A stretch of 64,000 nt of DNA from an uncultured Chloroflexia bacterium (lineage in GTDB: Bacteria; Chloroflexota; Dormibacteria; Aeolococcales; Aeolococcaceae), in the NCBI GenBank assembly GCA_963803165.1, contig CAWDLK010000008.1, positions 8,790-72,789 of the forward strand, read 5' to 3'. This document shows positions 35,290 through 58,500 of this stretch, one piece after another. Position 1 is the first letter of the stretch. Every line of letters begins with the position of its first letter. The notes under the pieces were generated by a model. The model was not told the DNA's origin. It saw only the letters and a program-made list of their open reading frames with translations, and searched no databases. Made by a program: the position numbers and the translations under genes.

Positions 35290-37005
35290 ATGACCCAGAA
35301 CGGACACTCCCGCCGCAGCGCCGTGATGCTCCACGGCCCCGACCGCGCCCCCGCCCGGGCGATGCTCCACGCCATCGGATTCAGCCGCGAGGACCTGGAG
35401 CGACCCATCATCGGGGTCGGACACGCATGGATCGAGACCATGCCGTGCAACTGGAACCATCGGGCCCTGGCCGAGCAGGTGAAGGCCGGCATCCGCGCCG
35501 CCGGCGGGACCCCGATGGAGTTCAACACCATCGCGGTGAGCGACGGCGTCTCCATGGGGACCGAGGGGATGAAGGCGTCGCTGGTCTCGCGCGAGGTGAT
35601 CGCCGACTCCATCGAGGTGGTGACCCGCGGCCACAGCTTCGACGGCCTCGCCCTCATCGTCGGCTGCGACAAGACCATCCCGGCGGCGGCCATGGCCCTC
35701 TGCCGCATGGACCTCCCCGGGCTCGTCCTCTACGGCGGCACCATCGCCCCGGGGCGGCTCCGCGACCGTGACGACCTCACCGTGCAGGACGTCTTCGAGG
35801 CCGTCGGCGCCTTCAACGCGGGGCGGATCGACGATCGGGAGCTGCGCGCGGTGGAGGAGGCGGCCTGCCCGGGCGCGGGTGCCTGCGGAGGTCAGTACAC
35901 GGCCAACACCATGAGCGGTGCGCTCGAGTTCCTCGGCCTCAGCCCCGCCGGGGCCAACGGCGTCCCCGCCGTCCACGCCGAGAAGGCCCGGGCCGCCGAG
36001 GCGGCCGGCCGGCTGGCGGTGCGGCTGGTCACCGAGGACGTCCGACCCCGTTCCATCGTGACCCGGGCGGCCCTGGAGAACGCCATCGCCTACTTCTCGG
36101 CCACCGGTGGGTCGACCAACGCGGTGCTGCACCTGCTCGCCATCGCCGCCGAGGCCGAGGTGGCCCTGGACATCGAGGACTTCCAGGCGATCTGCGCCCG
36201 CACCCCGATCCTCGCCGACCTCCGGCCCGGGGGACGCTTCGTCGCCACCGACATCCACCGCGCCGGCGGTCTGGCGGTGCTGATGCAGCGCCTGCTCAGC
36301 CTCGGGCTGCTCCACGGCGACGCCCGCAACGTGGAGGGGCGGACCCTCGCCGAGATCGCCGCCGCCGCCCACGAGACCCCGGGCCAGCAGGTGTTCCGGC
36401 CCGCCGACAACCCGGTCCGCGCCCACGGCGGCATCGCCATCTTGCGTGGCAACCTGGCCGCCGGCGGCAGCGTCATCAAGCTGGCCGGACACGACAAGAC
36501 CACCCACCGAGGTCCCGCCCGCGTCTTCGACTCCGAGAACCAGGCCTTTGCCGGGGTGCGCGAGGGGAGGGTGCAGGCCGGCGACGTGGTGGTCATCCGC
36601 TACGAGGGCCCGGTGGGCGGTCCGGGGATGCAGGAGATGCTCTCGGTCACCGGCGCGCTCGCCGGCGCCGGCCTCGACGACTTCGTGGCCCTGGTCACCG
36701 ACGGCCGCTTCTCCGGCGCGACCCACGGTTTCATGGTCGCCCACGTGGTGCCGGAGGCCGCCCTCGGCGGTCCGCTGGCGGTGCTGCGCGATGGTGACAT
36801 CGTGCGCATCGACGTAGCCGCGCGGGAGCTCTCGGTCGAGCTGCCCGACGCGGAGATCGCCGAGCGGCTGCGCGCCTGGACGCCGCCCCAGCCCCGCTAC
36901 CGCACCGGTGCCTTCGCCAAGTACGCCGCCATGGTCTCCTCGGCGAGCCAGGGCGCCGTCACCCGGCCGGCGGGCACCGAGGTGAGCGCACCGGCGCGGG
37001 TCTGA
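35290..37005 (+). CDS. ilvD: Dihydroxy-acid dehydratase
   Basis: MTQNGHSRRSAVMLHGPDRAPARAMLHAIGF..., CDKTIPAAAM, GACGGQYTANTM, ATGGSTNAVLHL. Start moved from 34582 to 35290. Confidence 0.9.
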   Translation: MTQNGHSRRSAVMLHGPDRAPARAMLHAIGFSREDLERPIIGVGHAWIETMPCNWNHRALAEQVKAGIRAAGGTPMEFNTIAVSDGVSMGTEGMKASLVSREVIADSIEVVTRGHSFDGLALIVGCDKTIPAAAMALCRMDLPGLVLYGGTIAPGRLRDRDDLTVQDVFEAVGAFNAGRIDDRELRAVEEAACPGAGACGGQYTANTMSGALEFLGLSPAGANGVPAVHAEKARAAEAAGRLAVRLVTEDVRPRSIVTRAALENAIAYFSATGGSTNAVLHLLAIAAEAEVALDIEDFQAICARTPILADLRPGGRFVATDIHRAGGLAVLMQRLLSLGLLHGDARNVEGRTLAEIAAAAHETPGQQVFRPADNPVRAHGGIAILRGNLAAGGSVIKLAGHDKTTHRGPARVFDSENQAFAGVREGRVQAGDVVVIRYEGPVGGPGMQEMLSVTGALAGAGLDDFVALVTDGRFSGATHGFMVAHVVPEAALGGPLAVLRDGDIVRIDVAARELSVELPDAEIAERLRAWTPPQPRYRTGAFAKYAAMVSSASQGAVTRPAGTEVSAPARV

Positions 37006-37128
37006 GCCCGGTCCGTCGGTCCGACGAGATCAGCCTTGGCCATAGGAGGATGCCCTCACTTCGCCTGAGGGATGTAAGCTCGAAGCCTGCAAGGGGTTGG
37101 CGGTGGCCGGGCCGCCCGGGATCGCCTG

Positions 37129-38373
37129 CTACTCGATTACGAACGGGCGCGCCGTCCAGTCCGTCCCACCGTCGGTTGTGGTCCAGATCGTCTGATCATC
37201 ACCCACCCAGCGGCCGGTCATCGGGTCCTCGAAGCCGAGCCAGAGACTGGCGCCGACCGGCGCCGCGCTCAGGTTCAGCTGGTCGGTGGCGACGGCGGAC
37301 CAGCTCTCGCCGCCGTTGCTGGAGATCCAGAGGGTGGTGGTGTCCGGGCCTCCCCCGCCCACCGAGGCGGAGCCGATCACCAGCGTGCCGGCGCCAGGTG
37401 TGGCGAGCAGACCGACGTACGACCCGGGAACCGGGATCAGGGACCCCCAGGCGGAGCCCTCGTCGGAGGAGGTGAGCACCGCCCAACCCGGCGCCCCCTC
37501 GCAGAGAGCGGCGAGGTAGCCCATCGGCGTCACGGCGAAGGCGATCGTGCCCGCACGGTCGCCACCGGCGTCGGCACAGGGGTCGGAAAACTGCTGCCAG
37601 TTCTGGCCGCTGTTCAGAGAGCGGTACAGGGCGGCCTCCTGATCGCCGATGCCACCCCCCGCCGGGTTGCCGTAGATGGGCAGGTAGATGGTCTGGCTGC
37701 CCTGGAGGATGAGGGTGGCCGTGTCGAGGTCGCCCTGCTCGGGAATCTGGAGCAGCGTCCGCCAGGTGTCGGAGCCGGCCGGGGCCTCCTCCACGGTGCG
37801 ATTACAGGGCCCGGGACAGCCCGTGTTGTTGTAGACGACGCGAAAGACGTCTCCACCCGTCGCCTCCAGGGTCTCGACCGGCGGGCTGACCAGCTCCTGC
37901 CAGCTTTCGCCGCCGTCCACGGTCATGAAGAGGGACGGACCGAAGAGGTAGCCGATCTTCGAGGTGGCGAAGCGGATATGGCTCACGCAGGCCTCCTGCT
38001 GGCAGTCGGCAGTCTGGGGCGGGTTGGGGCCGTAGAACGAAACGGACGGGCTGGGCAGACCCTGCCAGGTGAGGCCGCCGTCGGTGGTCTCCGCCACTGC
38101 CGGGCAGAGCTGGCCTGCGCAGGGAACCGCGGCCAGGGCCCACCCCATCGAGTTGGTGACCCAGGTGAGGTCGACCACGTACGGCCCGGCCGAGGCGGGA
38201 ATGGGTGTCGGCGTCGCGACGTTCTTGCCCGGGGGAGGCGTCGAGGTGGGCGAGGCGCTCGGGGAGCTGACCAGGGCGCCCGACCGCGCCGGCGTGGAGG
38301 ATGTCAACGGGTGGATCCCCGGCCCGCAGGCGGCCGTGATCATCGCGATGCCGACCAGCCATTGGAGCCTCAC
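37129..38373 (-). CDS. Lipoprotein with BNR/Asp-box beta-propeller repeats
   Basis: MRLQWLVGIAMITAACG lipobox. TTDGGLTW, TVDGGESW, SLNSGQNW, SSDEGSAW, SSNGGESW, TTDGGTDW. Confidence 0.7.
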   Translation of the reverse strand: MRLQWLVGIAMITAACGPGIHPLTSSTPARSGALVSSPSASPTSTPPPGKNVATPTPIPASAGPYVVDLTWVTNSMGWALAAVPCAGQLCPAVAETTDGGLTWQGLPSPSVSFYGPNPPQTADCQQEACVSHIRFATSKIGYLFGPSLFMTVDGGESWQELVSPPVETLEATGGDVFRVVYNNTGCPGPCNRTVEEAPAGSDTWRTLLQIPEQGDLDTATLILQGSQTIYLPIYGNPAGGGIGDQEAALYRSLNSGQNWQQFSDPCADAGGDRAGTIAFAVTPMGYLAALCEGAPGWAVLTSSDEGSAWGSLIPVPGSYVGLLATPGAGTLVIGSASVGGGGPDTTTLWISSNGGESWSAVATDQLNLSAAPVGASLWLGFEDPMTGRWVGDDQTIWTTTDGGTDWTARPFVIE

Positions 38374-38436
38374 CCATCGCCCTCGAGAGCCCGGGACGAA
38401 CGCAGCCCCTCATCATGATCTACGTCCGTGGCGCTC

Positions 38437-38498
38437 CTCCGGTGACATGCCCCAACACTCACCCAGGCGAGGGTCCGCTTACCGTCACTGGAGCAGAC
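38437..38498 (+). repeat. Structured repeat copy A
   Basis: CTCCGGTGACATGCCCCAACACTCACCCAGGCGAGGGTCCGCTTACCGTCACTGGAGCAGAC. Outer stem 38437-38446 / 38484-38493. Confidence 0.8.
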
Positions 38499-38610
38499 GC
38501 TGCGGATGGACCAAACACCCAAGGAACTGGCGCCGGCCGAGGCTGGTCGAACATCTGAGCCGACTGAAGCGATTGAGCGGCCGAAAGCGAGCGGAACCGC
38601 TGGTGCCTGC

Positions 38611-38616
38611 TAGCGT
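38611..38616 (+). promoter_or_regulatory. -10-like TAGCGT, 9 nt before GTG 38626
   Basis: TAnnnT hexamer immediately upstream of the start codon with no SD. Short-leader or leaderless pattern. Confidence 0.3.
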
Positions 38617-38625
38617 CTCACCAGA

Positions 38626-39693
38626 GTGAAACCGCAAGCGACCACCGTCGCGGTGTTCGTCTTCTGTGTTGCAGTTGCTTTGTGCGGCTCCTCCCCGCTA
38701 GCCCTGCACGCGAGCCCACGGCCCCCAACCCCGTCGTCCAGCCCTTACCCAGGCGGGCTGAGCTCATCGGAGGCTGGCGGCCTGGGTGCTACCCCCAGCA
38801 CAGAACTCGTCGCGGTCCTTGGGGACAGCGTCGAGGTTCTGTCTGCCTCGACGGGGGCGGTGCTGCACAGCGTCACCATCGCCCCGACGTTGGGAACCGC
38901 AATCGAGGCGCAGATCGCTGTCGACCCCGCGGGGGACACGATGTATGCGTCGACGGCAGTCGGGACGAGCTGCGCTTCGAACCTGGTGGTCGACGTCGAC
39001 CTGCAGTCAGGGTCCGTGGGGGTCGTCGCGGAATTCGCGTCGGCGCCGACGATCAGCCCCGACGGGACCCAGCTCGCCTACATCACCTACTCGGGGCCCG
39101 CCTGCTCGGCGGACACGGTCACAGTCGAGGATCTCGCCTCAGGCGCGCGCCGCTCGTGGGACGTCATCACTACGGCCGCGGTCGCGAGTTGGGCGCCGCC
39201 GGAGCTGCTCAGCCTGGAGTGGGCGCCAGATGGCCGCCACCTTCTGCTGGGAAGCGTCTACGGGAACTTCAGTGGCGTCCAGATCCTCGACACCGACCAG
39301 GCGGTCGGACCCGCGAACCCTCGAGATGTCGGGCCGGCCAGCAGCGACGACCTACCCGGCGGCCGGTACAGCGATCCGGAGATGCGGCCCGACGGCGGAG
39401 TCGTCGCCCTCGAGCCGTACTTGTGGGCGGGGATCAGCGACCCGGACGTCACTGCTGGAACCGCTGTGGTGGTGCTCGATGCCATGACCGGGGACGTCAC
39501 CTCCACCCTGCTCAGCCAGCCCAACCCTGATGCGGCAGTGGGCATCGACGCCCTGGCGATCGACCCGTCGGGGACCCAGGTGGCGCTGGTGGGCGGAACA
39601 GCGCAGCAGGCTGGTCTCTATCTGGTCACCTCCGGGGCGCTGCGGCTCGTGGTACCCGACGTCGTCGCCGCCGATTGGCTCCCCGGCGGCTGA
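38626..39693 (+). CDS. Secreted protein with TolB/PD40-like beta-propeller repeats
   Basis: Hydrophobic signal VAVFVFCVAVALCGSS. ISPDGTQLAY, WAPDGRHLLL and IDPSGTQVAL repeats. Confidence 0.55.
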   Translation: MKPQATTVAVFVFCVAVALCGSSPLALHASPRPPTPSSSPYPGGLSSSEAGGLGATPSTELVAVLGDSVEVLSASTGAVLHSVTIAPTLGTAIEAQIAVDPAGDTMYASTAVGTSCASNLVVDVDLQSGSVGVVAEFASAPTISPDGTQLAYITYSGPACSADTVTVEDLASGARRSWDVITTAAVASWAPPELLSLEWAPDGRHLLLGSVYGNFSGVQILDTDQAVGPANPRDVGPASSDDLPGGRYSDPEMRPDGGVVALEPYLWAGISDPDVTAGTAVVVLDAMTGDVTSTLLSQPNPDAAVGIDALAIDPSGTQVALVGGTAQQAGLYLVTSGALRLVVPDVVAADWLPGG

Positions 39694-39723
39694 CAAGCGG
39701 TTGGCGGCCGTGGCACGGACCTA

Positions 39724-39787
39724 GCCTGAAAGGACATACCCCGACACTGGGTCGGCGGAGTGAGCTCTTACTCACACTTGAGCAGAC
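39724..39787 (+). repeat. Structured repeat copy B
   Basis: GCCTGAAAGGACATACCCCGACACTGGGTCGGCGGAGTGAGCTCTTACTCACACTTGAGCAGAC. Begins 31 nt after the stop of 38626..39693. Confidence 0.8.
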
Positions 39788-39832
39788 CGCCCGAGCGAAC
39801 CAATGGCGCCACGACAGGGGATCTCATCCCGT

Positions 39833-39838
39833 TAAGCT
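39833..39838 (+). promoter_or_regulatory. -10-like TAAGCT, 6 nt before ATG 39845
   Basis: Spacing fits transcription starting at the A of the ATG (leaderless mRNA). No SD. Confidence 0.35.
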
Positions 39839-39844
39839 GGCGGC

Positions 39845-40408
39845 ATGGTCAGGCGGGCCGGGGATGACCGTACCTGGCGCATCGGGACAGATGCCGAGGT
39901 CGCGTGGATCGCCAGCGGAACATCCATAGGCCGGACCATCACCGCCGCCATCCCGCCTACCTTCGAGGCCTACGCCACGGTGGTCTTCCCGCACGGCCGT
40001 GAAGAGTGGGGCAGGCATGATCGGGCGATCCTGGCCCTGCTCAGCGAGCAGTCGGCAGACCAGCCGTGGTGGCTTGGCTATCTCGACATCGGTGCCGACA
40101 ACTTCGCCTTCCCCGACGCGCCGAAGGTGACCTTGTACCCGTCGTGGCAGTACGTGCTGGTCGAGGCGCTGCCGGCGCAGGCCGCTACGTGGCCCTGGCC
40201 CCGGAGTGGCCCGGGGTCGGGTTTCTTGCCCAACCTGATGTTCCCTGGCGACCGCTCCTGGCTCGTCAACACGCTGTGGGACGACGACTGGACGTGTATC
40301 GGCGGACCGGCCGAGCTCGTCAACAGATTCGCGTCCCACCCCGATCTGGAGGCGAGGCTGGTGGCCCTCGGCGAGGACGCCACACCACCAGGTCATCAGG
40401 CTCTGTGA
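39845..40408 (+). CDS. Hypothetical cytoplasmic protein
   Basis: 187-aa ORF with protein-like composition (IPPTFEAYATVVFPHG...WWLGYLDIG...). No signal peptide and no recognised domain. Confidence 0.5.
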   Translation: MVRRAGDDRTWRIGTDAEVAWIASGTSIGRTITAAIPPTFEAYATVVFPHGREEWGRHDRAILALLSEQSADQPWWLGYLDIGADNFAFPDAPKVTLYPSWQYVLVEALPAQAATWPWPRSGPGSGFLPNLMFPGDRSWLVNTLWDDDWTCIGGPAELVNRFASHPDLEARLVALGEDATPPGHQAL

Positions 40409-40413
40409 CGGGC

Positions 40414-40475
40414 GCCTCATGTGTGATAGCCCAACACTGGGCCAGCGGAGAGTGTTGTCACTCACATCCGAATCG
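40414..40475 (+). repeat. Structured repeat copy C
   Basis: GCCTCATGTGTGATAGCCCAACACTGGGCCAGCGGAGAGTGTTGTCACTCACATCCGAATCG. Begins 6 nt after the stop of 39845..40408. Confidence 0.8.
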
Positions 40476-40561
40476 CGGCCTGGCGCCGCTCATGGGCCAG
40501 AGTCAACATGTAACATCTACGAGCCCCGGTAGGTTCTCGCGAGGTACGGGAACTTCCGCTG

Positions 40562-40567
40562 CATAAT
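40562..40567 (+). promoter_or_regulatory. -10-like CATAAT, 8 nt before ATG 40576
   Basis: AT-rich hexamer directly upstream of the start. No SD. Confidence 0.3.
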
Positions 40568-40575
40568 CGAGTCGA

Positions 40576-41049
40576 ATGGAGATGTTCGGGCGCCGGATGG
40601 CCTGTGGCGGCATGGCTGCGGTGCTGCTGGGGCTTGCCGGATGCTCCGGTCCGGGGCCAAACACAGCTCCGAGGGTCACCCATAGCCTCGGCTACCCGCG
40701 GGGGGTGAGCCTGCAGCCTGCCCAGGGAGCCGAACGAGTTGGCTGGGAGAACGCTCACCAGCTGGCGGTCGTGACCTACGGCAGCTCCGGCTGTCCCCTG
40801 CTTCCCGTGTCGGTGGGAGCGGCGGGCAACCTTGTGGTGATCATCGTGGGCGCGACGGTGTCTGCAGACAGCCCTTGCCTCGCCGACAATGCCGCCTCCA
40901 CGAGCCTGGTCCCCGTGCCCAAGACGATCGACGTGAGCCAGCCGGTGGTCGTCGTGATCCATATCGCCCCCGGTGAGCCTGCCGTCTACCCCAGCTTGGG
41001 TGCGAATGAGCACACCATGGTCACGCTCCCGCCTTTCGGGAGTCCTTAG
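40576..41049 (+). CDS. Hypothetical lipoprotein
   Basis: MEMFGRRMACGGMAAVLLGLAGCSG lipobox. 157 aa. Confidence 0.5.
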   Translation: MEMFGRRMACGGMAAVLLGLAGCSGPGPNTAPRVTHSLGYPRGVSLQPAQGAERVGWENAHQLAVVTYGSSGCPLLPVSVGAAGNLVVIIVGATVSADSPCLADNAASTSLVPVPKTIDVSQPVVVVIHIAPGEPAVYPSLGANEHTMVTLPPFGSP

Positions 41050-41070
41050 CCCACCCCTCCAAATGCCCGG

Positions 41071-41133
41071 GCCTCAAGGGACATTCCCCAACACTGGGCC
41101 AGGCGAGTGTGCTGTGTCTTGTCCCTTGAGGTC
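41071..41133 (+). repeat. Structured repeat copy D (best-formed copy)
   Basis: GCCTCAAGGGACATTCCCCAACACTGGGCCAGGCGAGTGTGCTGTGTCTTGTCCCTTGAGGTC. Perfect 12-bp closing stem 41072-41083 / 41120-41131. Confidence 0.85.
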
Positions 41134-41213
41134 GGCGTCCGGTACCCGGGGTAGGCAGCGGCCGAACCAGGTCTGTGCCCCGCACGGTTCCGGCGGGCTT
41201 CGTGAGATCGAGG

Positions 41214-42608
41214 TCAGACGGTCGCCGCCTGAAGCCGGCGCCGTCGCCAGATCACCAGCGCGATGAGAGCGACGACAATCACCACGAGCGGCACCAACCA
41301 GGCGACGATGGGAACGCCCCCCGCCGCAGATGAAGGAGGCGTGAAACTCAGGGTCAAAGTCATCAGCGCGTACGGTGGGCTCTGACCCTGGGGGCTGGCC
41401 GCCCAATAGGCAGCGTCCGCCGCCTTCACCTGCTCCAGCAGGGAACGTCCGGCGGCGGTGAGGGGCAGCGCCAGGGTGTGGCTCCCCGTGGTCATGTACG
41501 CTGCCTCGCCGGCGGCGACCTGGGTGCCCACCGGGACCGGCGTGGGGCTGGCCGCGGTGAGACGGGCGGCCGGCTGGCGGGTGACGTCGAGGGTTGAGTT
41601 GGGCGCGCCACCCGGCAGGAAGGCGACGGCGCTGCCCGAGCCGGTGCCGCCGTCGAAGTCGAAGCCGCACCCTGAGGCGGCATCCAGACGTGGTGTCCCC
41701 GGACTGTCACCTGGGTAGAAGCCGATGGCGCTGCCATTGCCGCCGCCGCCCTCGAAGGCCACAACGCAGGGGTCGGAGCAGCTGAAGGCCGGTGCCGAGC
41801 CGGCGGGGTAGCCCGTGGCCCCCGGGCCGTCGAGCAGTGTGATCCGAGGGGTGTCGGGGCGGAACGCGATGGCGCTGCCATTGCCGCCGCTGCCATCGAA
41901 GGCCAGCACCCCGCTCAGCGTTCCCGGCTGGCCGACGTCCAGGGTCACCGTGGCCTGACCGGCGCTCAGCAGGTCGGTGGCGCTGCTCTGGAAGTTCTGG
42001 ATGGTGTCCTGGATCGTCCCGCTCTGCTCCTTGTAGCAGCCCTCCAGGAACCATGCGGGGGCGCTGGGGTCGGGGGTCGGCAGTGCCACGGACGAGGACG
42101 GGCCGCCGGGTGTGGGGGTGGCCGAGGTCACCAGGGTGAGTCCCGTGCCGGCCAGGGTAAGCGTATCCGCGATGCCGGGGAAGGTGGTCCCGTTCGGTGT
42201 GATGTTGGTATGGGTCCCCGCGAAATGGGAGCCGCTGCCGGTGAGGTCCCAATCGGTGTCGAAGGAGCCGTTGCCACTCGCCTGGGCGGCGCTCGAGACC
42301 AACTGCAGCTGATCGGCTCCGGCCTGCACCACCGAGAGCGATTGCGTGTAGCCGTTCGGAAGCGTGATGACCAGGAGCGCCCCCGAAGGACCGGCGGTGA
42401 GGGCGACGGACACGGTCCTGCTGACTCCTGGCGACTCTGTCCAGGTGGCTCCGGACTGGTCCAGGTGGAGCTCGGCCAGGGGCACCGGGGTTTCCGGCCC
42501 GGGGGTCTGGGCCGCAGCCGGCTGGCCCAGCGCCGCCGCCCCGAGGAGAAGAGCCACCCCGACCGGGCCGACCTTGAGGAGCCGGCGCGCCCATTCCCCA
42601 ACTCTCAT
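41214..42608 (-). CDS. Secreted protein with C-terminal TM anchor and three Gly-rich internal repeats
   Basis: Start moved to MRVGEWARRLLKVGPVGVALLLGAAALGQPAAAQ (signal peptide). Repeats AFDGSGGNGSAIAF / AFEGGGGNGSAIGF / DFDGGTGSGSAVAF. Tail is a TM helix followed by RRRR. Confidence 0.55.
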   Translation of the reverse strand: MRVGEWARRLLKVGPVGVALLLGAAALGQPAAAQTPGPETPVPLAELHLDQSGATWTESPGVSRTVSVALTAGPSGALLVITLPNGYTQSLSVVQAGADQLQLVSSAAQASGNGSFDTDWDLTGSGSHFAGTHTNITPNGTTFPGIADTLTLAGTGLTLVTSATPTPGGPSSSVALPTPDPSAPAWFLEGCYKEQSGTIQDTIQNFQSSATDLLSAGQATVTLDVGQPGTLSGVLAFDGSGGNGSAIAFRPDTPRITLLDGPGATGYPAGSAPAFSCSDPCVVAFEGGGGNGSAIGFYPGDSPGTPRLDAASGCGFDFDGGTGSGSAVAFLPGGAPNSTLDVTRQPAARLTAASPTPVPVGTQVAAGEAAYMTTGSHTLALPLTAAGRSLLEQVKAADAAYWAASPQGQSPPYALMTLTLSFTPPSSAAGGVPIVAWLVPLVVIVVALIALVIWRRRRLQAATV

Positions 42609-42748
42609 GCCATCAGCATGACGGCGGCTCTCCGGGTGAGCAAGCCTGCGGACACGCTCGCTTTCGCTGGTGCCCTCCTCACCTGAGCCCGCGGCCACCT
42701 CACCCCCCCTGATCCGCAGCCTCGTGCCCGGCGTCTGGAGGGAGGCGG

Positions 42749-42812
42749 CCCTCAAGCGACATTCGCCATTTCTGGGCCAGCCCAGGGTACTGTTACTGCC
42801 ACTGCAGCAAAG
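42749..42812 (+). repeat. Structured repeat copy E
   Basis: CCCTCAAGCGACATTCGCCATTTCTGGGCCAGCCCAGGGTACTGTTACTGCCACTGCAGCAAAG. A better closing partner for the 5' arm (GTCGACTTAG) may lie at 42837-42846. Confidence 0.75.
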
Positions 42813-42849
42813 CGCTCAACCCGGTCAGCCGGCGCGTCGACTTAGCCGA

Positions 42850-42855
42850 TAATCT
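42850..42855 (+). promoter_or_regulatory. -10-like TAATCT, 7 nt before GTG 42863
   Basis: TAnnnT hexamer with no SD. Leaderless pattern. Confidence 0.35.
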
Positions 42856-42862
42856 GCCCGAC

Positions 42863-43204
42863 GTGAACCCCGTCGAGGCCTGGCGCCGCGCTCACAACAC
42901 TCTCCGGACAGACCGGTCCGGCGAGCCCATCCCCATGTTCCGCAACTACGCGCTTCACTATGCCTACACGGGTACCGGATTCATCCTTGCTGGACTTGTG
43001 CTACTGCTCCTCCTTCAGGTTGCAGGATTCGGCCTCATCTTATTCGGGCTGATCGGTTACGTCTTTTGCGATACTACTACTACTACTACTACAACTTCGT
43101 CGCACCCCGATGGCGGTAGTGCCGCCCTCAGCTACCGGCGGGCCTCGGCCTCGCCTCAAGGGTCATTCCCCAACGCTGGGCCACGCCAGGATGCAGTCGT
43201 CTGA
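42863..43204 (+). CDS. Small membrane protein containing a poly-Thr tract
   Basis: One or two TM segments (FILAGLVLLLLLQVAGFGLILFGLIGYVF), then T8 encoded by the trinucleotide repeat. Visibly AT-richer than its surroundings. Confidence 0.45.
   Translation: MNPVEAWRRAHNTLRTDRSGEPIPMFRNYALHYAYTGTGFILAGLVLLLLLQVAGFGLILFGLIGYVFCDTTTTTTTTSSHPDGGSAALSYRRASASPQGSFPNAGPRQDAVV
43072..43092 (+). repeat. Trinucleotide microsatellite (TAC)7
   Basis: TACTACTACTACTACTACTAC read directly. In frame it is (ACT)6-ACA-ACT, encoding Thr8. Confidence 0.9.
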
Positions 43205-43220
43205 CGCCCTACCCTCGAGC
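43153..43220 (+). repeat. Structured repeat copy F (more degenerate)
   Basis: GCCTCAAGGGTCATTCCCCAACGCTGGGCCACGCCAGGATGCAGTCGTCTGACGCCCTACCCTCGAGC. Overlaps the last codons of 42863..43204. Confidence 0.7.
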
Positions 43221-43284
43221 GCGAAGGTCCATGCGGTTGCGCAGGAGGCGTGGTGGAGCCTGGCATCCCGGCATCCGTTCCAGG

Positions 43285-43926
43285 TCACCGTACCCTCGGA
43301 CGCCGCACCATGCCCACCCAGGTGAACGGCTGCTCGGTCCCGCCCGGGGTGTGGTGCTCGTCCCGCCGGTGCTCGACCAACTCGAACTCGGCTCCGAAGA
43401 CAGAGGCCAGGTCACCCGGCTCGTAGCGTCGAACGGGCAGGCCGGAGCACCGCTGGGGCCCGTCTCCGGCGAAGGTGCCGATCACCACTCGAGCCTCCGG
43501 GGTGAGCGCCGCCCGCAGGGCGGCCAGGTAAGCCGTGCGCTGATCCTCCTCCACGAGAAAGTGGAACACCGCGCGGTCATGCCAGATTTCGTAGCGTCGC
43601 TCTGGCCGCCAGGCGAGCACATCGTCACGGAGCCAGTGGACGTGTGGGGCTCGCTCCCCCAGGCGATGCCTTGCGTGTGCGAGTGCGGCAGCCGACACGT
43701 CGAGCACGCTGACATCGCCGAAGCCGCGGTCGAGCAGACGGTCGACCAGCACCGACGCCCCGCCCCCGACGTCGATGATCGGCTCCTCGGGGGTGACACC
43801 GAGCGCGTCGAGCAATGCCAGTGACACCGTGGGCTCGTCCTGGTACCAGCTCACCTCGGTGGGAGGCCGCCGGCGGTAGATCTCGTCCCAGTGCCCGGCC
43901 GCCTCGAGTGCTCCAGTCTCCATCAT
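43285..43926 (-). CDS. Class I SAM-dependent methyltransferase
   Basis: IIDVGGGASVLVDRLL (motif I), VLDVS, HDRAVFHFL. Confidence 0.75.
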   Translation of the reverse strand: MMETGALEAAGHWDEIYRRRPPTEVSWYQDEPTVSLALLDALGVTPEEPIIDVGGGASVLVDRLLDRGFGDVSVLDVSAAALAHARHRLGERAPHVHWLRDDVLAWRPERRYEIWHDRAVFHFLVEEDQRTAYLAALRAALTPEARVVIGTFAGDGPQRCSGLPVRRYEPGDLASVFGAEFELVEHRRDEHHTPGGTEQPFTWVGMVRRPRVR

Positions 43927-44072
43927 CCACAGACTACGACGCCCCATCTCCACGGGCGCTGCCGGGGTCAGCCCTCCGCCAGGAAGTGGCACACGGTGTC
44001 GGAGAACCGCACTCCGGCCTCAACCTCGACCGTTCCGCCCCCGCCGCCTGGACTCGTCGTCCATCTAGCCGG

Positions 44073-44561
44073 CTAGCGGTGACGGCGAAGCTGCCCCGGA
44101 CTGAATCCGTAGCCTTCGCTCCCCTGGTGTGCCGCCGCGCGCCGCTGCGCCCTCCGCCGGCGCTCCCATCCCACCGCGAGGCAGAGCGCGGCGAGCACAA
44201 AGGGGGTGAGCACGAAGGTCGCGTCGAAGATCCGCGTGGAGAGCTTGTCCTCGACGGCGACCGGGGGATCGCTGGGGTCGAGGTAGACCGTGACCCGCTC
44301 GGGCGGGGCGTCCTGGGAGCGGTCATGAGCCTCGAAGGTGTAGGAGGTGCCGCGATACTGGTAGTTGACGCTGCCGCCGAGGTCCAGCCCTGGCACTGCA
44401 CGTCCCGTCCAGAGCAGGAAGCTGGGGGACACGACCTCCGCGCACACCGCGAGGGCGCCGACGAGCACGAGGATCAGCGCGCAGCCGCCGGACCAACCCG
44501 CGACGCCGGCGAGCCGCTGCGCCGATGCCTGGAGCCGCCTGCTCACCAGCCGGCGACCCAC
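44073..44561 (-). CDS. Hypothetical two-TM membrane protein
   Basis: 162-aa ORF with an N-terminal TM (CALILVLVGALAVCA) and a C-proximal TM (FVLTPFVLAALCLAV), followed by a basic tail. Confidence 0.45.
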   Translation of the reverse strand: MGRRLVSRRLQASAQRLAGVAGWSGGCALILVLVGALAVCAEVVSPSFLLWTGRAVPGLDLGGSVNYQYRGTSYTFEAHDRSQDAPPERVTVYLDPSDPPVAVEDKLSTRIFDATFVLTPFVLAALCLAVGWERRRRAQRRAAAHQGSEGYGFSPGQLRRHR

Positions 44562-44609
44562 ATTCCACGCGACCCCGTCGGAGACAGCCCGCGGCCTGCC
44601 GATCCCACC

Positions 44610-46289
44610 TCAGCACTCCGGGTCGGAGCCGCTGACCACCTGCCAGGTGCCGTCGGTACCCTGGAGAGCCTGCAGCGTCATCGAGCCGGACTGGACGTCC
44701 GTGGTCGGCCCCGGGCTGCCGGTCACGCGCCAGCCGGTCGTCGGGACGTCCGACCAGACATCCCCGTGAACGGCGAACCACTCCGCAGCCGTCGTGGGGG
44801 AGCTCTCCCCACCGGTGTCCCGGGCGAGGGAGAGGCTGAATCCCCGGCCATGCGAGCACGGGGAGCAGGCGGCGGTTCCGGCGAGAGCCAGCGCTAACGC
44901 CCCAACGATCAGGCGCGAGGGAGGCGGCAACGTGGCATCCATTATCTCGGCGACCGAGCCAGCGAGTTCGACCGAGCGGAGCGCGCTGCGGGCAGACGGC
45001 GCACTCGGCTCAGCGTGAGCGGGGTCAGCTTGGCGAGACAGGTCGTCCCGTCTGAGGCGTTGCGACCGTTCATCCGGCGCCCGGACCTTCCAGCCGAGCA
45101 GATCGGCGAGCAGCAGGGCCATGCCGCCGGCGATCGGCAGCGCCACGCACACGGTGGGGGCGCCGGCCAGCCGGGCGACGGCGGCGACGGAGAACGCGAC
45201 GGGGACGTAGAGCCGCCAGTTGTCCACCCTCCCCGGCCGGGCGAGCCACCAGATCGTCGCGAAGGTGCAGGGACCGACGAGGTAGTAGGGCCAGACCGAC
45301 TTGGCGAGGAGCGGCAGGCCCGCCGTGGACAGGGCAATGAGGGCGTGGATACGGGGTGGGCCCGGGAGCGTCGCCCCGCCGCCCCGCACCGCCAGCCAGG
45401 TCAGGACGACCGCCGCCATGCCGAAGAGGAGGGCGTCGCCATGCTGGATGAAGGTTGCGACCGGGCCCTCCGGGAAGAGCGTCCAGAGCGATCCCCCGAG
45501 GGCGGGCACCCGACCGCGATAGGTGACCATCGACGCGACCACATCGCGACCGTCGGCGAGGACGAAGGGAAGCAGCCCGGCGGCTGCGACGATCGCCGAC
45601 GTGCCGAGCAGGATGGCGGCCGACCGCAGGCGCCGTCCCGCGAGGAGGGCGAGGACGAGCGGGAGGGCGGCGAGCAGCGCGGCGGTCTGGGTGAGCAGGG
45701 CGAGCCCCAGGAGGCATCCGGCCACGGTGGTGCGGCCGCGGCCGAGCTGTCGCACCGCCACCAGGATGAGCCAGAGCTCGAGGGGGAGCTCGGCATGGCC
45801 GTAGACGACCATGCCGATCCAGAGCGGCGGTGCGAGCAGGAATGCCGACCAGGTGACGGACGCGGGGAGTGGCTGGTCCCGCGCGCTCCCCACGACCCTG
45901 ACGGCCTCGCGCGCGAAGGCCAGTGCGAAGAGGCCGAAGACGCCCATGACGACCGCGTCTCGAAGTGGGGCGTCGGCCTCCCAGCCCAGGGCGTTGACGG
46001 TCGCGACCACTGCGGTGAGGGGTACGAGGCTGAGGGGCCCGTTGTCGCTTCGCCAGACACCGGCGTGGACGCTGTAGACGAGGAGCGGGCGGCCGTGGAG
46101 GGCGAGCTCGGCCATGGGCCAGCGAAAGAGGTCGAGATCGCTCCGGCTCCAGAACGCGAAGGTGGCGAGCGCCAGCCCGGCCAGGAATGCCGAGGCGAGC
46201 ACGCGGGGCGTCGCCAGCCGGCCGGCGCGACGTGTGGTTGCAGCGAGCGACGCGATGACGGTTCTCCTGACCTCAGACGCCGGGGACAC
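44610..46289 (-). CDS. Polytopic membrane protein (GT-C/DUF2029-like glycosyltransferase candidate), in frame with a lipoprotein-like C-terminal module
   Basis: About 430 aa with many TM helices. From ATG 44942 onward there is a self-contained signal plus lipobox (LALALAGTAAC) and a soluble ~85-aa domain. This may be one fusion protein or two genes. Confidence 0.5.
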   Translation of the reverse strand: MSPASEVRRTVIASLAATTRRAGRLATPRVLASAFLAGLALATFAFWSRSDLDLFRWPMAELALHGRPLLVYSVHAGVWRSDNGPLSLVPLTAVVATVNALGWEADAPLRDAVVMGVFGLFALAFAREAVRVVGSARDQPLPASVTWSAFLLAPPLWIGMVVYGHAELPLELWLILVAVRQLGRGRTTVAGCLLGLALLTQTAALLAALPLVLALLAGRRLRSAAILLGTSAIVAAAGLLPFVLADGRDVVASMVTYRGRVPALGGSLWTLFPEGPVATFIQHGDALLFGMAAVVLTWLAVRGGGATLPGPPRIHALIALSTAGLPLLAKSVWPYYLVGPCTFATIWWLARPGRVDNWRLYVPVAFSVAAVARLAGAPTVCVALPIAGGMALLLADLLGWKVRAPDERSQRLRRDDLSRQADPAHAEPSAPSARSALRSVELAGSVAEIMDATLPPPSRLIVGALALALAGTAACSPCSHGRGFSLSLARDTGGESSPTTAAEWFAVHGDVWSDVPTTGWRVTGSPGPTTDVQSGSMTLQALQGTDGTWQVVSGSDPEC

Positions 46290-46400
46290 TCAGAGCATCC
46301 ACCAGCAGGTCGGCGTCGCGGTGGCTCGCCATGGCTTCGGGCGTCAGCCGGCCGGCGGGCGCGCCAGCGATCCTGCGTCGGTGTCGCGCGGCCCGGGTGG

Positions 46401-46425
46401 TTCGTCACGAAATGTTCGTGACGAA
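46401..46425. promoter_or_regulatory. 25-bp palindromic operator candidate
   Basis: TTCGTCACGAA-ATG-TTCGTGACGAA. The two 11-nt arms are exact reverse complements, and each arm is itself a TTCGT-N-ACGAA palindrome. It lies in the 341-bp divergent intergenic region. Confidence 0.45.
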
Positions 46426-46630
46426 ATATCGGCAATCTCCGCAAAGGACAGGCACCCGTGACTGCAGGGGGTCGGGTGGAATGGTGCGTTCTTGCCCGAT
46501 GGTCGGATCAGGGGGGCCGTCCGAGCCTCTTCGTCACCCTGGCCCGGGTACCAAAGCCCCTTGCAGACGGAGGACCGGCCGCTCTAAAGCGGGAGCCTGG
46601 ACCGCCCGCCCACCGAGCGAAGGGACTCTC

Positions 46631-46912
46631 ATGAGCGTGACCCCCGACAGCGTGACCCCCGACGACCTGCGCCAGGTCGCCCTGAAGCAGCTTCAGGAGC
46701 GGCGGGACTTCATGCCCCACCTGCTCGCCTACGTCCTGGTGAACGCCGGACTGGTACTGGTCTGGGCTCTCGTCTCCCACGGCGTGTTCTGGCCGGGGTT
46801 CGTGCTCCTCTTCTGGGGCTGCGGCCTGGTGATCCACGCCTGGACCGCCTTCTTCCGGAAGCCGATCACCGAGGCCGAGGTCGAGCGCTACATGGCGCGC
46901 CTGCACGGCTGA
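46631..46912 (+). CDS. 2TM-domain small membrane protein
   Basis: AAGGGA SD. MSVTPDS...RRDFMPHLLAYVLVNAGLVLVWAL...WPGFVLLFWGCGLVIHAW. Confidence 0.6.
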   Translation: MSVTPDSVTPDDLRQVALKQLQERRDFMPHLLAYVLVNAGLVLVWALVSHGVFWPGFVLLFWGCGLVIHAWTAFFRKPITEAEVERYMARLHG

Positions 46913-46961
46913 GACCCGGGCGAGGGGCCGGGCGCTCCCCCTTCGAGCAGCGGTTCCCGGA

Positions 46962-46967
46962 TAAGCT
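46962..46967 (+). promoter_or_regulatory. -10-like TAAGCT, 7 nt before GTG 46975
   Basis: Same hexamer and spacing as at 39833. No SD. Confidence 0.3.
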
Positions 46968-46974
46968 CTGGGAT

Positions 46975-47457
46975 GTGCGCTGGGACGAGTTCGCGCGGCA
47001 GTGCCCCGAGCTTGCCCAGCACGGGGAGGAGCGTCTGCGCGGCCGCGAGCTCTGCCTGATCGGGACCCTGCGGCGAGACGGGAGGCCTCGCATCAGCCCG
47101 GTCGAGCCGGACTTCGTGGACGGCGAGCTGATGGTCGGGATGATGTGGCGGTCGCGCAAGGCCCTCGACCTGCTCCGCGATCCCCGCTGCACCGTCCACA
47201 GCGTCGTCTCCGACCGCAAGGGCACCGAAGGCGACTTCAAGCTGCACGGCCGTGCCCTCGAGGTCGCCGATCCGGGGCGGCGCGCCCGCTACCGCGCGAC
47301 CATCCGGGCGCGGATCGACTGGGAGCCCACCGAGCCCGACTACCACTGTTTCGCCATCGACGTCGATTCGGCGGGGTTCGTCATCTTCGGGGACGCCCGG
47401 TACGGCCTCGCCTGGACCCCGTCCGCCGGCCTGAGGCGCTGGCAGCTGCCCGGGTGA
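46975..47457 (+). CDS. Pyridoxamine 5'-phosphate oxidase-family (split beta-barrel) protein
   Basis: LCLIGTLRRDGRPRISPVEPDFVDGELMVG...LLRDPRCTVHS. Confidence 0.65.
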   Translation: MRWDEFARQCPELAQHGEERLRGRELCLIGTLRRDGRPRISPVEPDFVDGELMVGMMWRSRKALDLLRDPRCTVHSVVSDRKGTEGDFKLHGRALEVADPGRRARYRATIRARIDWEPTEPDYHCFAIDVDSAGFVIFGDARYGLAWTPSAGLRRWQLPG

Positions 47458-47475
47458 GGATCCCGGAGCGTCCGC

Positions 47476-48297
47476 TCAGCCGTCCCGCCGCTTGCGGGCG
47501 GTGACCAGCCTGTGCTGGGGCAGCGCCCGCGCGGCCACGGAGTCAACCGGTAGCGGCCAGCGGCCGTAGTGGGCATCGGCGGCTCCGCACTGGCTCAGGG
47601 TGGCCTCCCAACCCAGAGCGTCCAGGTAGGCCCCGGGGTCGTCGATGGTGCCGATCCAGGGGGCGTCGGCAGCGGCCTGCATCTCGATCCAGGGCCGGGT
47701 CACCGGGTGGGTGAACACGGCCCGGTCCGGGATGTCGAACCCCAGCACGCTCCCCCGCGCCGCCAGCCCTGATACCCGTCCCAGCAGGGCGGCGATCGCC
47801 TTGGCGTCGAGATAGAAGAGGAATCCCTCGGCCAGCCAAGCGGCAGGGACATGGGGGTCGAGACCCGCGCCGACCAGCTGGTCCGGCCAGCGGTCCTCAC
47901 TCAGGTCCGTGCAGAGGCGGACGAGTCGGGCGCAGCGCGCGGCCGTGCCACCGAGCACCTTCTCCTTCTGATGGATCACCTCGGGCTGGTCCACCTCGAA
48001 GACCGAGGTGCCACCCGACCAGGCCAACCGGAAGGCGCGGGTGTCCAGGCCGGCGCCGAGCAGCACCACCTGGGGGACTCCACCGGCGGTGGTGGCGCGC
48101 AACAGGAAGTCGTCGAAGTAGCGGGTGCGCACGATCATCGGAGCAAGCCCCTCGGGGGCGCGCGCCTCCGCCCACCGGCAGCCCTCCTCACCGGCGAGGT
48201 CGGCCGCCCACGGATCGCTGAAGAGAGCGTCCTTGCGGCTCGTCTCGACCGCGCGAGCCGCCGCGGTCCAGCGCGCCGTCGCTCCGATGTCCGTCAT
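47476..48297 (-). CDS. SAM-dependent methyltransferase (TIGR00027 / leucine carboxyl methyltransferase-like)
   Basis: ARWTAAARA.E..R.DALF.DPWA, RTRYFDDFL, VVLLGAGLDTRAFRL, FEVDQPEV. Confidence 0.8.
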   Translation of the reverse strand: MTDIGATARWTAAARAVETSRKDALFSDPWAADLAGEEGCRWAEARAPEGLAPMIVRTRYFDDFLLRATTAGGVPQVVLLGAGLDTRAFRLAWSGGTSVFEVDQPEVIHQKEKVLGGTAARCARLVRLCTDLSEDRWPDQLVGAGLDPHVPAAWLAEGFLFYLDAKAIAALLGRVSGLAARGSVLGFDIPDRAVFTHPVTRPWIEMQAAADAPWIGTIDDPGAYLDALGWEATLSQCGAADAHYGRWPLPVDSVAARALPQHRLVTARKRRDG

Positions 48298-48310
48298 GGC
48301 TCGCTCCTCC

Positions 48311-48964
48311 TCAGATCATCCGGCGGTCCATGGCCCAGCGGGTCAGCTCGTAGCGGCTGCTGAGCTGGAGCTTGCGCAGCACCGAGGAGACGTGGGTCTC
48401 CACCGTCTTGGCGGAGAGATTGAGCCGCACCCCGATCTCCTTGTAGGTGAAGCCGCGGGCGATGTGGCGGAGCACCTCGCGCTCGCGCGGGGTGAGCTGA
48501 TCCATCTCGGGATCGATGCTGGTGGGCAGCTCGCCCCGGAACGCGTCGAGGACGAAGCCCGCCAGGCGGGGCGAGAAGACCGCGTCACCGCCGTGGACGC
48601 GCCGGATGGCGTCGGCGAGTTCGGTGGGGGAGATCGACTTGGTGACGTATCCATGGGCCCCCGCCCGGATCACCCCGATCACGTCCTCGGGCGCGTCGGA
48701 GACCGAGATGGCCAAGAAGCGGGTCCCTCCGGCTCCCCGCCGGGTGATCGCGTCCGCCACCGTGGCACCCCCGCCGCCGGGGAGGTGCACGTCGAGGAGG
48801 ACGACCTCGGGCTGGAGGGCCACGATGCCCGCCACCGCCTGGTCCACGTCCCCGGCCTCGCCGACGATCTCGAACTCGTCCTCCAGCTCGGCCCGGAGCC
48901 CACTGCGGAAGAGCTGGTGATCGTCGACGATGAAGACGCGCGTGCGCGGCGCCGTGGATCTCAT
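48311..48964 (-). CDS. LuxR/NarL-family response regulator
   Basis: RVFIVDDHQLFRSG, LLDVHLPGGGG, C-terminal HTH (LTPREREVLRHIARGFTYKEIGVRLNLSAKTVETHV). The ATG overlaps the kinase stop (ATGA). Confidence 0.9.
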   Translation of the reverse strand: MRSTAPRTRVFIVDDHQLFRSGLRAELEDEFEIVGEAGDVDQAVAGIVALQPEVVLLDVHLPGGGGATVADAITRRGAGGTRFLAISVSDAPEDVIGVIRAGAHGYVTKSISPTELADAIRRVHGGDAVFSPRLAGFVLDAFRGELPTSIDPEMDQLTPREREVLRHIARGFTYKEIGVRLNLSAKTVETHVSSVLRKLQLSSRYELTRWAMDRRMI

Positions 48965-58322: not shown

Positions 58323-58500
58323 GGTCACACCTGAATACACGCCCCGGGTGACGGGAAGCCGGTGAGATTCCGGCACTGTCGCGCAACTGTGAGCGGGGAG
58401 CCGAGGTCAGCGTGCCACTGCGAGACGCATGTCTCGTGGGAAGGCGACCGATGGCGACGATCCGCAAGCCAGGAGACCGGCTCGAGGCGGGACTCCACCC
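58323..58500 (+). promoter_or_regulatory. Cobalamin (B12) riboswitch
   Basis: GGTGACGGGAAGCCGGTGAGATTCCGGCACTGTCGCGCAACTGTGAGCGGGGAGCC ... B12 box GTGCCACTG (58412-58420) ... GGGAAGGCG ... GCAAGCCAGGAGACCGGC. Lies upstream of 58585..60819. Confidence 0.8.

Follow-up and report, generated by a model that had tools for sequence, protein, structure and literature searches.

Co-oriented composite repeats as joints of a putative mobile gene-cassette array in peat-associated Candidatus Dormibacteria

Integrons are the only well-understood system in which recombinase-free single-gene cassettes are stockpiled and shuffled. Among other short recombination sites, pdif sites, the 28-bp targets of XerC/XerD (11-6-11), occur in alternating orientation, and serine integrases normally recombine attP with attB once, giving products that are inert without a directionality factor. 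Here we analyze six co-oriented repeats in a 64-kb stretch of DNA from an uncultured peat-soil bacterium of the lineage Candidatus Dormibacteria (contig CAWDLK010000008.1, positions 8,790 to 72,789; the window hereafter), which a first-pass annotation had described as a cassette-like array outside the canonical integron type. We consider it reasonably probable that the six repeats are the joints of a chromosomal mobile gene-cassette array whose cassettes are exchanged site-specifically by an enzyme acting in trans. In the literature searched, no integrons have been reported from the host phylum, and full-text searches returned no mention of integrons, cassette arrays or repeats of this type in Dormibacterota.

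Six repeats of one orientation and their family

A nucleotide profile was built from 146 non-redundant copies of the repeat, none of them from the window, and the 64 kb were scanned with it at a cut-off of E<=10. The profile recovered exactly six window sites, all on the plus strand (E 1.2e-16 to 4.3e-11), and gave no further match. The real copies scored 39-57, compared with a best score of 8.8 in 20 block-shuffled control windows. A repeat-family search placed copies at 38432, 39721, 40411, 41068, 42746 and 43150; over 48 nt, the others are 73-81% identical to copy D. Both searches confirm the six plus-strand copies (A to F) of the first-pass annotation. Its statement that the 64 kb hold no other copy is upheld by the profile, but misses a seventh, cryptic half-joint after ilvD (37021-37071). 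The 36-nt core that had been quoted as common to the copies is the sequence of copy D and matches this copy alone at <=3 mismatches. Copies B, C and D start 31, 6 and 22 nt after stop codons and copy F overlaps the open reading frame (ORF) 42863-43204, both as described before. The lower GC content reported for the block was also found again (0.667-0.706, compared with ~0.72-0.75 in most flanking kilobases, that is 2-6 points lower), and the genes of the block have a weaker codon bias in third-position GC (GC3).

When a single genome of each species was scanned with a degenerate core pattern, 23 stretches were obtained, and a scan of JGI metagenomes added 118 more; profile searches over all these loci (numbered with the prefix L) gave ~250 copies in ~140 loci. 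The whole-repeat matches from the species scan were all in metagenome-assembled genomes (MAGs) of Dormibacterota from peat or in evidently mislabelled MAGs, the JGI stretches likewise came from peatland samples, and the core matched nothing in viral contigs. The repeat family is confined to peat-associated Candidatus Dormibacteria.

Copies had the same orientation in 86 of the 86 loci with at least two copies, the four apparent exceptions each being one spot matched on both strands. The DNA between neighboring copies made up 72 non-redundant units with a median length of 1.7 kb. As judged by our own GC3-based gene caller, whose calls are approximate, 43 of the 72 held a single gene, and the unit genes lay on the strand of the repeat in 52 cases and on the opposite strand in 43. 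Copies are clustered, with six within 5 kb of the window and none in the remaining 59 kb. At every locus the repeat joins unrelated DNA on its two sides, and no simple-insertion locus was seen. In the sequence examined, the copies are thus clustered, co-oriented and always at unit boundaries, which is the reverse of the genome-wide scatter in both orientations that had been named beforehand as fatal to the array idea.

The commonest cargo consists of secreted beta-propellers similar to BNR, Sortilin-Vps10 and PSII_BNR proteins, which fall into two clusters of 16 members in 15 loci and 10 members in 10 loci. Searches of Pfam, NCBIfam and PHROGs showed that the recurrent neighbor genes are cargo-like or unknown, including BNR/Sortilin-like propellers, MFS transporters, a glyoxalase, a methyltransferase and an ECF sigma factor. 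A BNR-type homologue with 65% identity was also found outside any array (L161/L162).

These data bear on the possibility that the repeat is a transcribed element shared by neighboring genes, such as a terminator, a structure in a 3'- or 5'-untranslated region (UTR) or a small RNA, the 3'-UTR/terminator version of which had been proposed earlier. Such an element would account for the position of B, C and D 6-31 nt past stop codons and for the long hairpins of A and D. However, these two are the only copies that form long hairpins when folded as single-stranded DNA, and the z-scores of most copies are unremarkable (-0.2 to -1.6). The stems are not followed by a T-run and show no covariation, and the repeats were unmatched in Rfam at the gathering score (whole window) and at E<=1 (block). 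Most directly, the orientation of the repeat is independent of that of the genes over the 72 units (52:43), and we regard a shared transcribed element as extremely improbable.

Composite joints, reuse of units and array edges

The homology between copies spans ~75-100 nt. The left 28 nt, TCAAGnGnCATTCCCCAACACTGGGC, and the CA that follows are nearly invariant, and the information content drops from 1.75 to 0.79 bits exactly past this CA, which is 97-99% conserved. The right half (35-80 nt) is moderately conserved, with the consensus SSSSAGnGTGCTnTCACT..CACTnGAGCAAA and sometimes a CCAATCG ~20 nt further. The repeat contains an imperfect palindrome, ACACTGGGC-CA-GCCCAGnGT, which is centered on the CA (between +14 and +15) with inner arms of 9-10 nt on each side, and a second, outer pair of roughly inverted arms (TCAAGTG...CACTTGA).

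Among the anchored copies, 33 pairs had nearly identical upstream flanks only and 19 had nearly identical downstream flanks only. Of the 15 non-redundant pairs sharing the upstream flank, 7 first diverge at +16 and another 4 at +17 to +19. In the pairs sharing the downstream flank, the variable left-arm bases follow the upstream DNA. In the pair L037_1453 and L041_3962, a single-nucleotide polymorphism at +11 is kept with the upstream unit and the sequence from +16 onward follows the downstream unit, which brackets the exchange to GCCA (+12..+15). Each joint thus consists of two unit ends: its left half closes the upstream unit, and its right half opens the downstream unit. The earlier layout of a gene followed by its repeat is accordingly replaced by one in which each repeat is divided between both neighboring units, with a central crossover.

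The complementarity of the arms within their own site was 6.05/10, compared with 6.00 +/- 0.07 for permuted partners (p=0.23; p=0.11 at the cassette level), and 7 near-perfect stems were observed family-wide where 3.5 were expected. The palindrome is not kept by compensatory change, which leaves an analogy to the folded hairpin of attC unsupported. In the window, the outer arms of repeat D form a perfect 13-bp stem, and the outer stems of A and D (9/10 and 10/10) are made from different sequences and have a compensatory look, though the family shows no arm covariation.

With the joints divided at the central CA, the window contains the following features.

37021..37071, plus strand: left-edge cryptic joint, 15 nt after the ilvD stop codon; left half CCGACGAGATCAGCCTTGGCCA, right half TAGGAGGATGCCCTCACTTCGCCTGAGGG, CA at 37041-37042
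37043..38465, plus strand: cassette 1, with a BNR/PSII_BNR-like beta-propeller gene (Pfam) at 37129-38373 on the minus strand
38437..38512, plus strand: repeat A, joint of cassettes 1 and 2 (E 7.6e-12); 38464-38465 aligns with the crossover CA; core mutated, with CTCACCCA instead of CTGGGCCA, the homologous joint in L163 being intact
38466..39754, plus strand: cassette 2, with a PD40/TolB-like propeller gene on the plus strand, start at 38626 or 38860, end at 39693
39726..39801, plus strand: repeat B, joint of cassettes 2 and 3 (E 3.2e-11); core mutated (CTGGGTCGG)
39755..40444, plus strand: cassette 3, with a gene for a 187-aa hypothetical protein at 39845-40408 on the plus strand
40415..40491, plus strand: repeat C, joint of cassettes 3 and 4 (E 2.8e-12); crossover CA at 40443-40444
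40445..41101, plus strand: cassette 4, with a putative lipoprotein gene at 40576-41049 on the plus strand, without a family match
41072..41148, plus strand: repeat D, joint of cassettes 4 and 5 (E 1.2e-16, the best window copy); CA at 41100-41101
41102..42779, plus strand: cassette 5, with a reversed surface-protein gene at 41214-42608 on the minus strand
42750..42826, plus strand: repeat E, joint of cassettes 5 and 6 (E 4.3e-11); core partly mutated (CGCCATTTCTGGGCCA)
42780..43183, plus strand: cassette 6, 404 nt; its sole content is a doubtful small membrane ORF at 42863-43204, which runs into F and was not called by the GC3-based gene caller
43154..43230, plus strand: repeat F, last recognizable joint (E 1.4e-11); CA at 43182-43183; right half atypical (LE part, E=0.19)
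43184..46975, no strand assigned: variable region right of F, with no recognizable joints
43285-43992, minus strand: S-adenosylmethionine (SAM) methyltransferase gene in this variable region
44073-44561, minus strand: 162-aa gene in the variable region
44610-46202, minus strand: 530-aa membrane-protein gene in the variable region, which also contains a two-transmembrane (2TM) protein

The BNR gene, which the first-pass annotation had left outside the array, would constitute cassette 1, and repeat F may be the right edge of the array. With six cassettes between 37043 and 43183, mutated cores in A, B and E and a constant order (unchanged in all 7 contigs found for this population), the array of the window looks old and sedentary. 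Two of the genes right of F have homologues within or beside arrays of other genomes: window 44069-44541 corresponds to an array-internal stretch of L020 (4411-4883), and the matches of window 44599-44937 in L024 (6338-6003) and of window 44604-44956 in L166 (12206-11856) both adjoin repeats. A fragment of ~340 nt with 80% identity to the 3' end of the 530-aa gene recurs beside repeats (L024, L166, L062/L067); the window has no repeat at this place.

Units recur in different contexts. When units were labelled by sequence similarity, M3 was followed by M7, M11, M14 or M70, M7 was followed by M26 or M45, and M1 was preceded by M33, M2 or M8. Several of the alternative joints recur in at least two independent samples, and a repeat of 28 nt is too short for chimeric joins at usual k-mer sizes, which makes an assembly artefact unlikely. 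Cassettes of the window are among the reused units. Cassette 1 (window 37055-38477) matches L166 4005-2580 with 85.4% identity over 1431 nt, where two neighboring repeats, out of at least six that are co-oriented, bound it exactly and its neighbors are unrelated to those in the window; the BNR unit is also bounded by two repeats in L163-L165. Window 39833-40465, comprising the 187-aa gene and repeat C, matches L011 3375-2740 (84.6%); the match ends in the repeat, and the downstream neighbors differ. Window 41074-42578 matches L010 2631-4107 (68% over 1564 nt), so that the right half of D travels with the reversed surface-protein gene. A 187-aa gene beside the BNR cassette in L163 was considered as a homologue of cassette 3 and proved unrelated by BLASTP. 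With co-oriented arrays in many Dormibacteria genomes, and units that are reused and joined exactly at the repeats, the cassette-array-like reading of the first-pass annotation, distinct from a canonical integron, is supported.

The left edge of the arrays has a site of its own. Judged by the window alone, the cryptic joint at 37021-37071 is weak (E=0.36 with the LE-only profile, ranked seventh behind the six known copies), but L010 has a clear homologous site at this position after ilvD (E 9e-7), and L051 shows the same arrangement. Its left-half motif also follows other core-like genes in L057 and L026, and the motif, CC(A/G)GCGAG(G/A)TCAGCCTGGGCCA, is followed by a right half of normal type in over ten different contexts. 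All five arrays that could be checked had this joint as their leftmost site, adjoining a high-scoring core-like gene. Left-edge and ordinary left halves have in common only CTGGGCCA (~8 nt), plus CATTCC in some copies, which is too little for left-edge joints to have been made by homologous recombination. At the opposite end, the right-edge family L025/L080/L058, beside a uracil-DNA glycosylase gene, shows an ordinary left half, the CA and the reverse complement of the left-edge motif, and three different last units abut this same flank. Relatives without arrays keep a similar motif after ilvD (L151, L154). The left-edge motif is probably a chromosomal attachment site. Arrays would begin beside a core gene at this site with its different left half (CCAGCGAGGTCAGCCTGGGC-CA), and the site would be rebuilt at each insertion and could serve as an entry point, like attI in integrons.

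In L149, which has an ilvD with 88% identity, ilvD is followed directly by a response-regulator/histidine-kinase pair that lies at 48.3 kb in the window, and the window stretch from 37.0 to 48.3 kb (37005-48311, 11.3 kb; compared with L149 11719-12365) is absent from this syntenic locus. The closer relatives L148-L159 have a variable region after ilvD and no repeats, with different genes in each of L148, L150, L151 and L154. In L148 and L162, which come from the same sample, two stretches of 21 kb were covered and held no repeat. Repeats are therefore not required for variability at this locus, and the DNA following ilvD is generally a hotspot of variation.

The edges also help to weigh the view that the repeat is a lineage-specific selfish element of the REP (repetitive extragenic palindromic)/REPIN (REP doublet forming a hairpin) or MITE (miniature inverted-repeat transposable element) type, strand-biased in dispensable DNA, with shuffling as a by-product of homologous recombination. 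On this view the ~8 nt common to normal joints and half-joints with a different left half would have to suffice for homologous recombination, which is too little, and one would not expect a repeat that always joins unrelated DNA, with no simple-insertion locus. The repeat is an intergenic imperfect palindrome, a genome holds numerous copies of it spread over several contigs, long hairpins are formed by A and D, and the invariant core of 20-28 nt could sustain rare homologous exchange, all of which would suit a selfish repeat; so would the targeting of REPs by IS110-family elements such as IS621, to judge from the reference list of PMC11187229. The copies nevertheless form no inverted pairs (86/86 multi-copy loci co-oriented) and are clustered (six in 5 kb, none in the other 59 kb), their arms lack covariation, and neither a REP-associated tyrosine transposase (RAYT) nor a Y1 transposase was found in ~1.1 Mb. 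The related alternative of REPs or bacterial interspersed mosaic elements (BIMEs) in the first-pass annotation is likewise disfavored by the lack of inverted pairs and of a RAYT, and we consider a selfish repeat quite unlikely.

Search for a recombinase and an IS1111-family element at the joint

Candidate enzymes were sought in ORFs from all six frames of the window and of every locus (~1.1 Mb flanking the arrays), with XerD and Hin (used as probes only) and with E. coli K-12 RayT, IS30, IS5, IS1, rve, resolvase (YagL) and reverse transcriptase (RT) probes. For serine recombinases, Hin and YagL gave nothing convincing in the ~1.1 Mb around the arrays. E. coli RayT had no match in all loci and the window, in a single-sequence search that distant RAYTs may escape, and Pfam showed no tyrosine recombinase in the 64-kb window. 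The sole recombinase-type gene among the called window genes (Pfam) encodes an IS256-family (Mutator-type) transposase (2695-3843, minus strand, PF00872, 4e-119), which had been overlooked when the window was said to hold no recombinase. The gene is 33 kb from the array, with imperfect terminal inverted repeats at ~2566-2602 and 3879-3941. It shows no link to the array, and the ends of the element are unlike the joints except for a coincidental 7-nt TCAAGTG. Other transposases were seen in comparison loci, namely one of the IS30 family at L124 7933-8964 (E 2e-75 to E. coli InsI) and one of the DDE_3 (IS630) type at L163 4988-6067.

The units could also be non-autonomous transposons (mobile insertion cassettes, MITE-like) mobilized by a transposase, of the DDE type or another, whose gene lies elsewhere. 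Their imperfect terminal inverted repeats would then be supplied by the right half of one joint together with the left half of the following joint, and a preference for insertion next to an existing element end would build head-to-tail arrays with ends 2 bp apart, as in the tandem dimers of IS30 and IS21. The ends of a unit are indeed mutually inverted in the inner 9-10 nt and the outer 8-10 nt, and abutted ends 2 bp apart resemble the circle or dimer junctions of insertion sequences. Junctions with abutted ends are formed by the IS30, IS21 and IS3 families. In such dimers, however, the spacer comes from variable flanking DNA, whereas here it is an invariant CA (97-99%). Transposases do occur in or near arrays (IS30 in L124, DDE_3 in L163, IS256 in the window), but no transposase family recurs with them, and the ends of the window IS256 copy are unlike the joints apart from the TCAAGTG coincidence. 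No target-site duplications are visible, and the edge sites look like a short palindromic attachment site and not like random targets. Taken together, these points make non-autonomous transposons unlikely.

In related genomes, the joint is itself the target of an insertion sequence. A ~1.36-kb IS1111-family element with a 338-aa DEDD transposase was found in 12 loci and at least six flanking contexts, and none was found in the window; examples are L096:1-1400, L064, L095, L062/L067/L024, L104, L124, L046 and L054. The transposase contains DEDD_Tnp_IS110 (PF01548, 1.7e-19) and Transposase_20 (PF02371, 1.3e-25) domains. Its gene has the orientation of the repeat and stops 237-240 nt before the repeat core, leaving a non-coding region of ~240 nt. 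The element enters the left half at a single fixed position (TCAAG/TG/TCATT) and in one orientation, with the junctions ...TCAAG TG|ATGCCATGAAGAGG...CCTCTTCATAGA|TG TCATTCCCC, that is with TG on both sides, and with the subterminal inverted repeats CATGAAGAGG and CCTCTTCATAG. L091 represents the empty site for the insertion in L064 and L095. An IS3-like element, recognized from translated sequence only, interrupts one IS1111 copy at L079 5852-7618.

Members of the IS1111 family have subterminal repeats, a non-coding region downstream of the transposase gene and a specific target and orientation, and some of them target integron attC sites and others REPs (PMC11187229). The element at the joint has the DEDD and PF02371 domains, the subterminal repeats, the region downstream of the transposase gene and the site- and orientation-specific insertion of this family. 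Its non-coding region had no match in Rfam and contains GAATGACA, which is complementary to the target TGTCATTC, and this complementarity suggests a guide (seek or bridge) RNA.

A true integron array without integrase, that is a cluster of attC sites with no integron-integrase (CALIN) and with highly divergent attC sites and an IntI encoded elsewhere, would explain the co-oriented, similar sites of 60-100 nt between mostly single-gene units of diverse, mostly unknown functions. The integrase is not adjacent in CALINs either (PMC4889954), the site is a target of an IS1111-family element, as attC is for the IS1111-attC group (PMC11187229), and the outer arms cCTCAAg...cTTGAGg match the inner 5/7 positions of each R box. 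As stated earlier, the canonical attC core pair is absent: a regular-expression scan that covered the entire window on its two strands gave no RYYYAAC...GTTRRRY pair (35-130 nt gap), and the single boxes in the block miss the repeats. The crossover is at the center of the site instead of the 3' R' box, and it is the left half together with the "loop" that is conserved, whereas in attC conservation concerns structure and not sequence. With arms that lack covariation, cassette genes on two strands (52:43) and no tyrosine recombinase near ~140 loci except a weak fragment in L065, 9 kb from a repeat, we consider an array of divergent attC sites very improbable.

We therefore return to a chromosomal array of mobile gene cassettes exchanged site-specifically in trans. 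The cassettes would be units of ~0.4-6 kb, mostly with one gene on either strand and no recombinase, which are cut and joined at the center of the joint. A conservative site-specific recombinase would act in trans, and the asymmetric CA would account for all sites of an array pointing one way. The inverted repeat around an invariant asymmetric dinucleotide, the exchange at this place, the co-orientation and the recombinase-free units are consistent with conservative site-specific recombination at the center of a dimer-type site. A 2-bp asymmetric center that sets polarity is typical of serine recombinases. It is typical, in a different way, of IS110-type enzymes as well (PMC11208160). The central 2-bp crossover would thus fit serine-type or IS110-type chemistry best, with a tyrosine recombinase whose overlap lies within TGGGCCA, or a transposase that targets element ends, as further candidates. 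Two further observations support the proposed cassette exchange, namely that the IS1111 element homes into the joint as IS1111-attC elements do into attC (PMC11187229), and that in related lineages the DNA following ilvD varies or is missing.

Several points weigh against cassette exchange in trans. No recombinase was found beside any array, the only matches being the weak partial tyrosine recombinase of L065 (9 kb from a repeat) and the single IS30 of L124, and the recurrent genes next to arrays are ordinary cargo. We found no circular cassette junction, no clean polymorphism of the A-B versus A-X-B type by strict ungapped flank matching, and no empty palindromic attachment site among the loci examined, and the array of the window is itself invariant over its 7 contigs. 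The narrow bracket of the crossover depends on a single informative downstream-sharing pair, and the invariant core of 20-28 nt could in principle otherwise allow rare homologous exchange. While there are many left-edge examples, there is a single convincing right-edge family, and a loose search for right edges was swamped by chance matches. The comparison loci are mostly short-read metagenome contigs, and the seed patterns required part of the core, so that core conservation is somewhat too high in the large set. The same conservation pattern is nevertheless seen in the six window copies, whose choice did not depend on the seed patterns.

The host and the remainder of the window were also characterized. 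The ilvD product is at most 92% identical to proteins named Candidatus Dormibacteria, and the gene order of the window is the same on metagenome contigs of 374 kb and 864 kb (ENA ERZ25039473 and ERZ25039540). A cobalamin riboswitch (RF00174, Rfam, 104.9 bits) at 58329-58499 lies upstream of a gene for a 755-aa protein with a squalene-hopene-cyclase-like domain, which is followed by CbiQ-like and ABC ATPase genes; the same gene set occurs in L161/L162 and probably represents an ECF-type cobalt or cobalamin uptake operon. Two divergent tRNA-Ser genes at 7183-7272 (minus strand) and 7906-7998 (plus strand), with the anticodons TGA and GCT and a 163-aa ORF between them, sit between very large Ig/cadherin-repeat surface-protein genes at 5017-7176 and 8216-11026.

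Comparison with known systems and implications

Palindromes of the REP/BIME/REPIN type resemble the joints in being imperfect and intergenic, in their lineage specificity and high copy number, and as natural targets of IS110-family elements. They measure 20-40 nt, are dispersed, often form inverted pairs and occur with a RAYT, whereas the joints measure 75-100 nt, are clustered and strictly direct, and no RAYT was found. The pdif/Xer modules of Acinetobacter plasmids and the integrative mobile elements exploiting Xer (IMEX) are closer in organization, being small recombinase-free modules with short sites and an enzyme encoded elsewhere in the genome. A dif/Xer system was set aside as unlikely for the present arrays, as the joint is larger, always direct and without the ATAA...TTAT signature of dif. 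The sites of serine recombinases (att sites of large serine integrases, res and gix) resemble the joint in their inverted repeat around an asymmetric central dinucleotide, with the switch directly after it, and in a core of ~40-60 bp; unlike in those systems, no serine recombinase gene was found near the arrays, the units lack an integrase, and every joint keeps the full site. The insertion sequence that enters the joint behaves like the IS1111-attC group in using one position and one orientation of a recombination-site-like repeat, and differs in that its target is the Dormibacteria joint and not attC. It provides a natural example of (predicted) guide-RNA-directed targeting of the recombination site of another mobile system.

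Integrons, including sedentary chromosomal integrons and CALINs, share most features with the arrays: co-oriented sites of 60-100 nt, mostly single-gene recombinase-free cassettes, an order that varies in relatives, a distinct attI-like end site by conserved DNA, an integrase that is often not adjacent, and targeting by the IS1111 family. In contrast to integrons, the joints have no R''/R' boxes, conserve their primary sequence and not a fold, and show no compensatory changes in the arms. Their crossover is central, so that each site belongs half to the upstream and half to the downstream cassette, the genes lie on either strand, and no IntI was found.

These likenesses and differences lead us to propose, tentatively, a gene-capture platform of Dormibacteria that has not been described before and that would be parallel to integrons and independent of them. 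It would comprise recombinase-free cassettes, a site of ~60-100 bp with a central CA, a trans-acting enzyme unrelated to IntI (serine, IS110/Piv or a new family), an entry site by core genes, and a homing, guide-RNA-dependent IS1111 element. There is a substantial chance that the cassette platform is an independent invention. If so, the same architecture would have arisen on a different site and probably with a different enzyme, and cassette platforms would have evolved more than once. The host phylum is uncultured and abundant in peat and permafrost soils, where such a system would give a handle on the exchange of accessory genes, here mainly those for secreted beta-propeller, lipoprotein and surface proteins. 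With a compact, sharply defined site and a mapped crossover, the recombinase should be findable and could become a new tool for site-specific recombination. The principle of recombinase-free cassettes shuffled at short sites is known from integrons; what differs is the site, the position of the crossover, the indifference to the strand of the cargo and, presumably, the enzyme.

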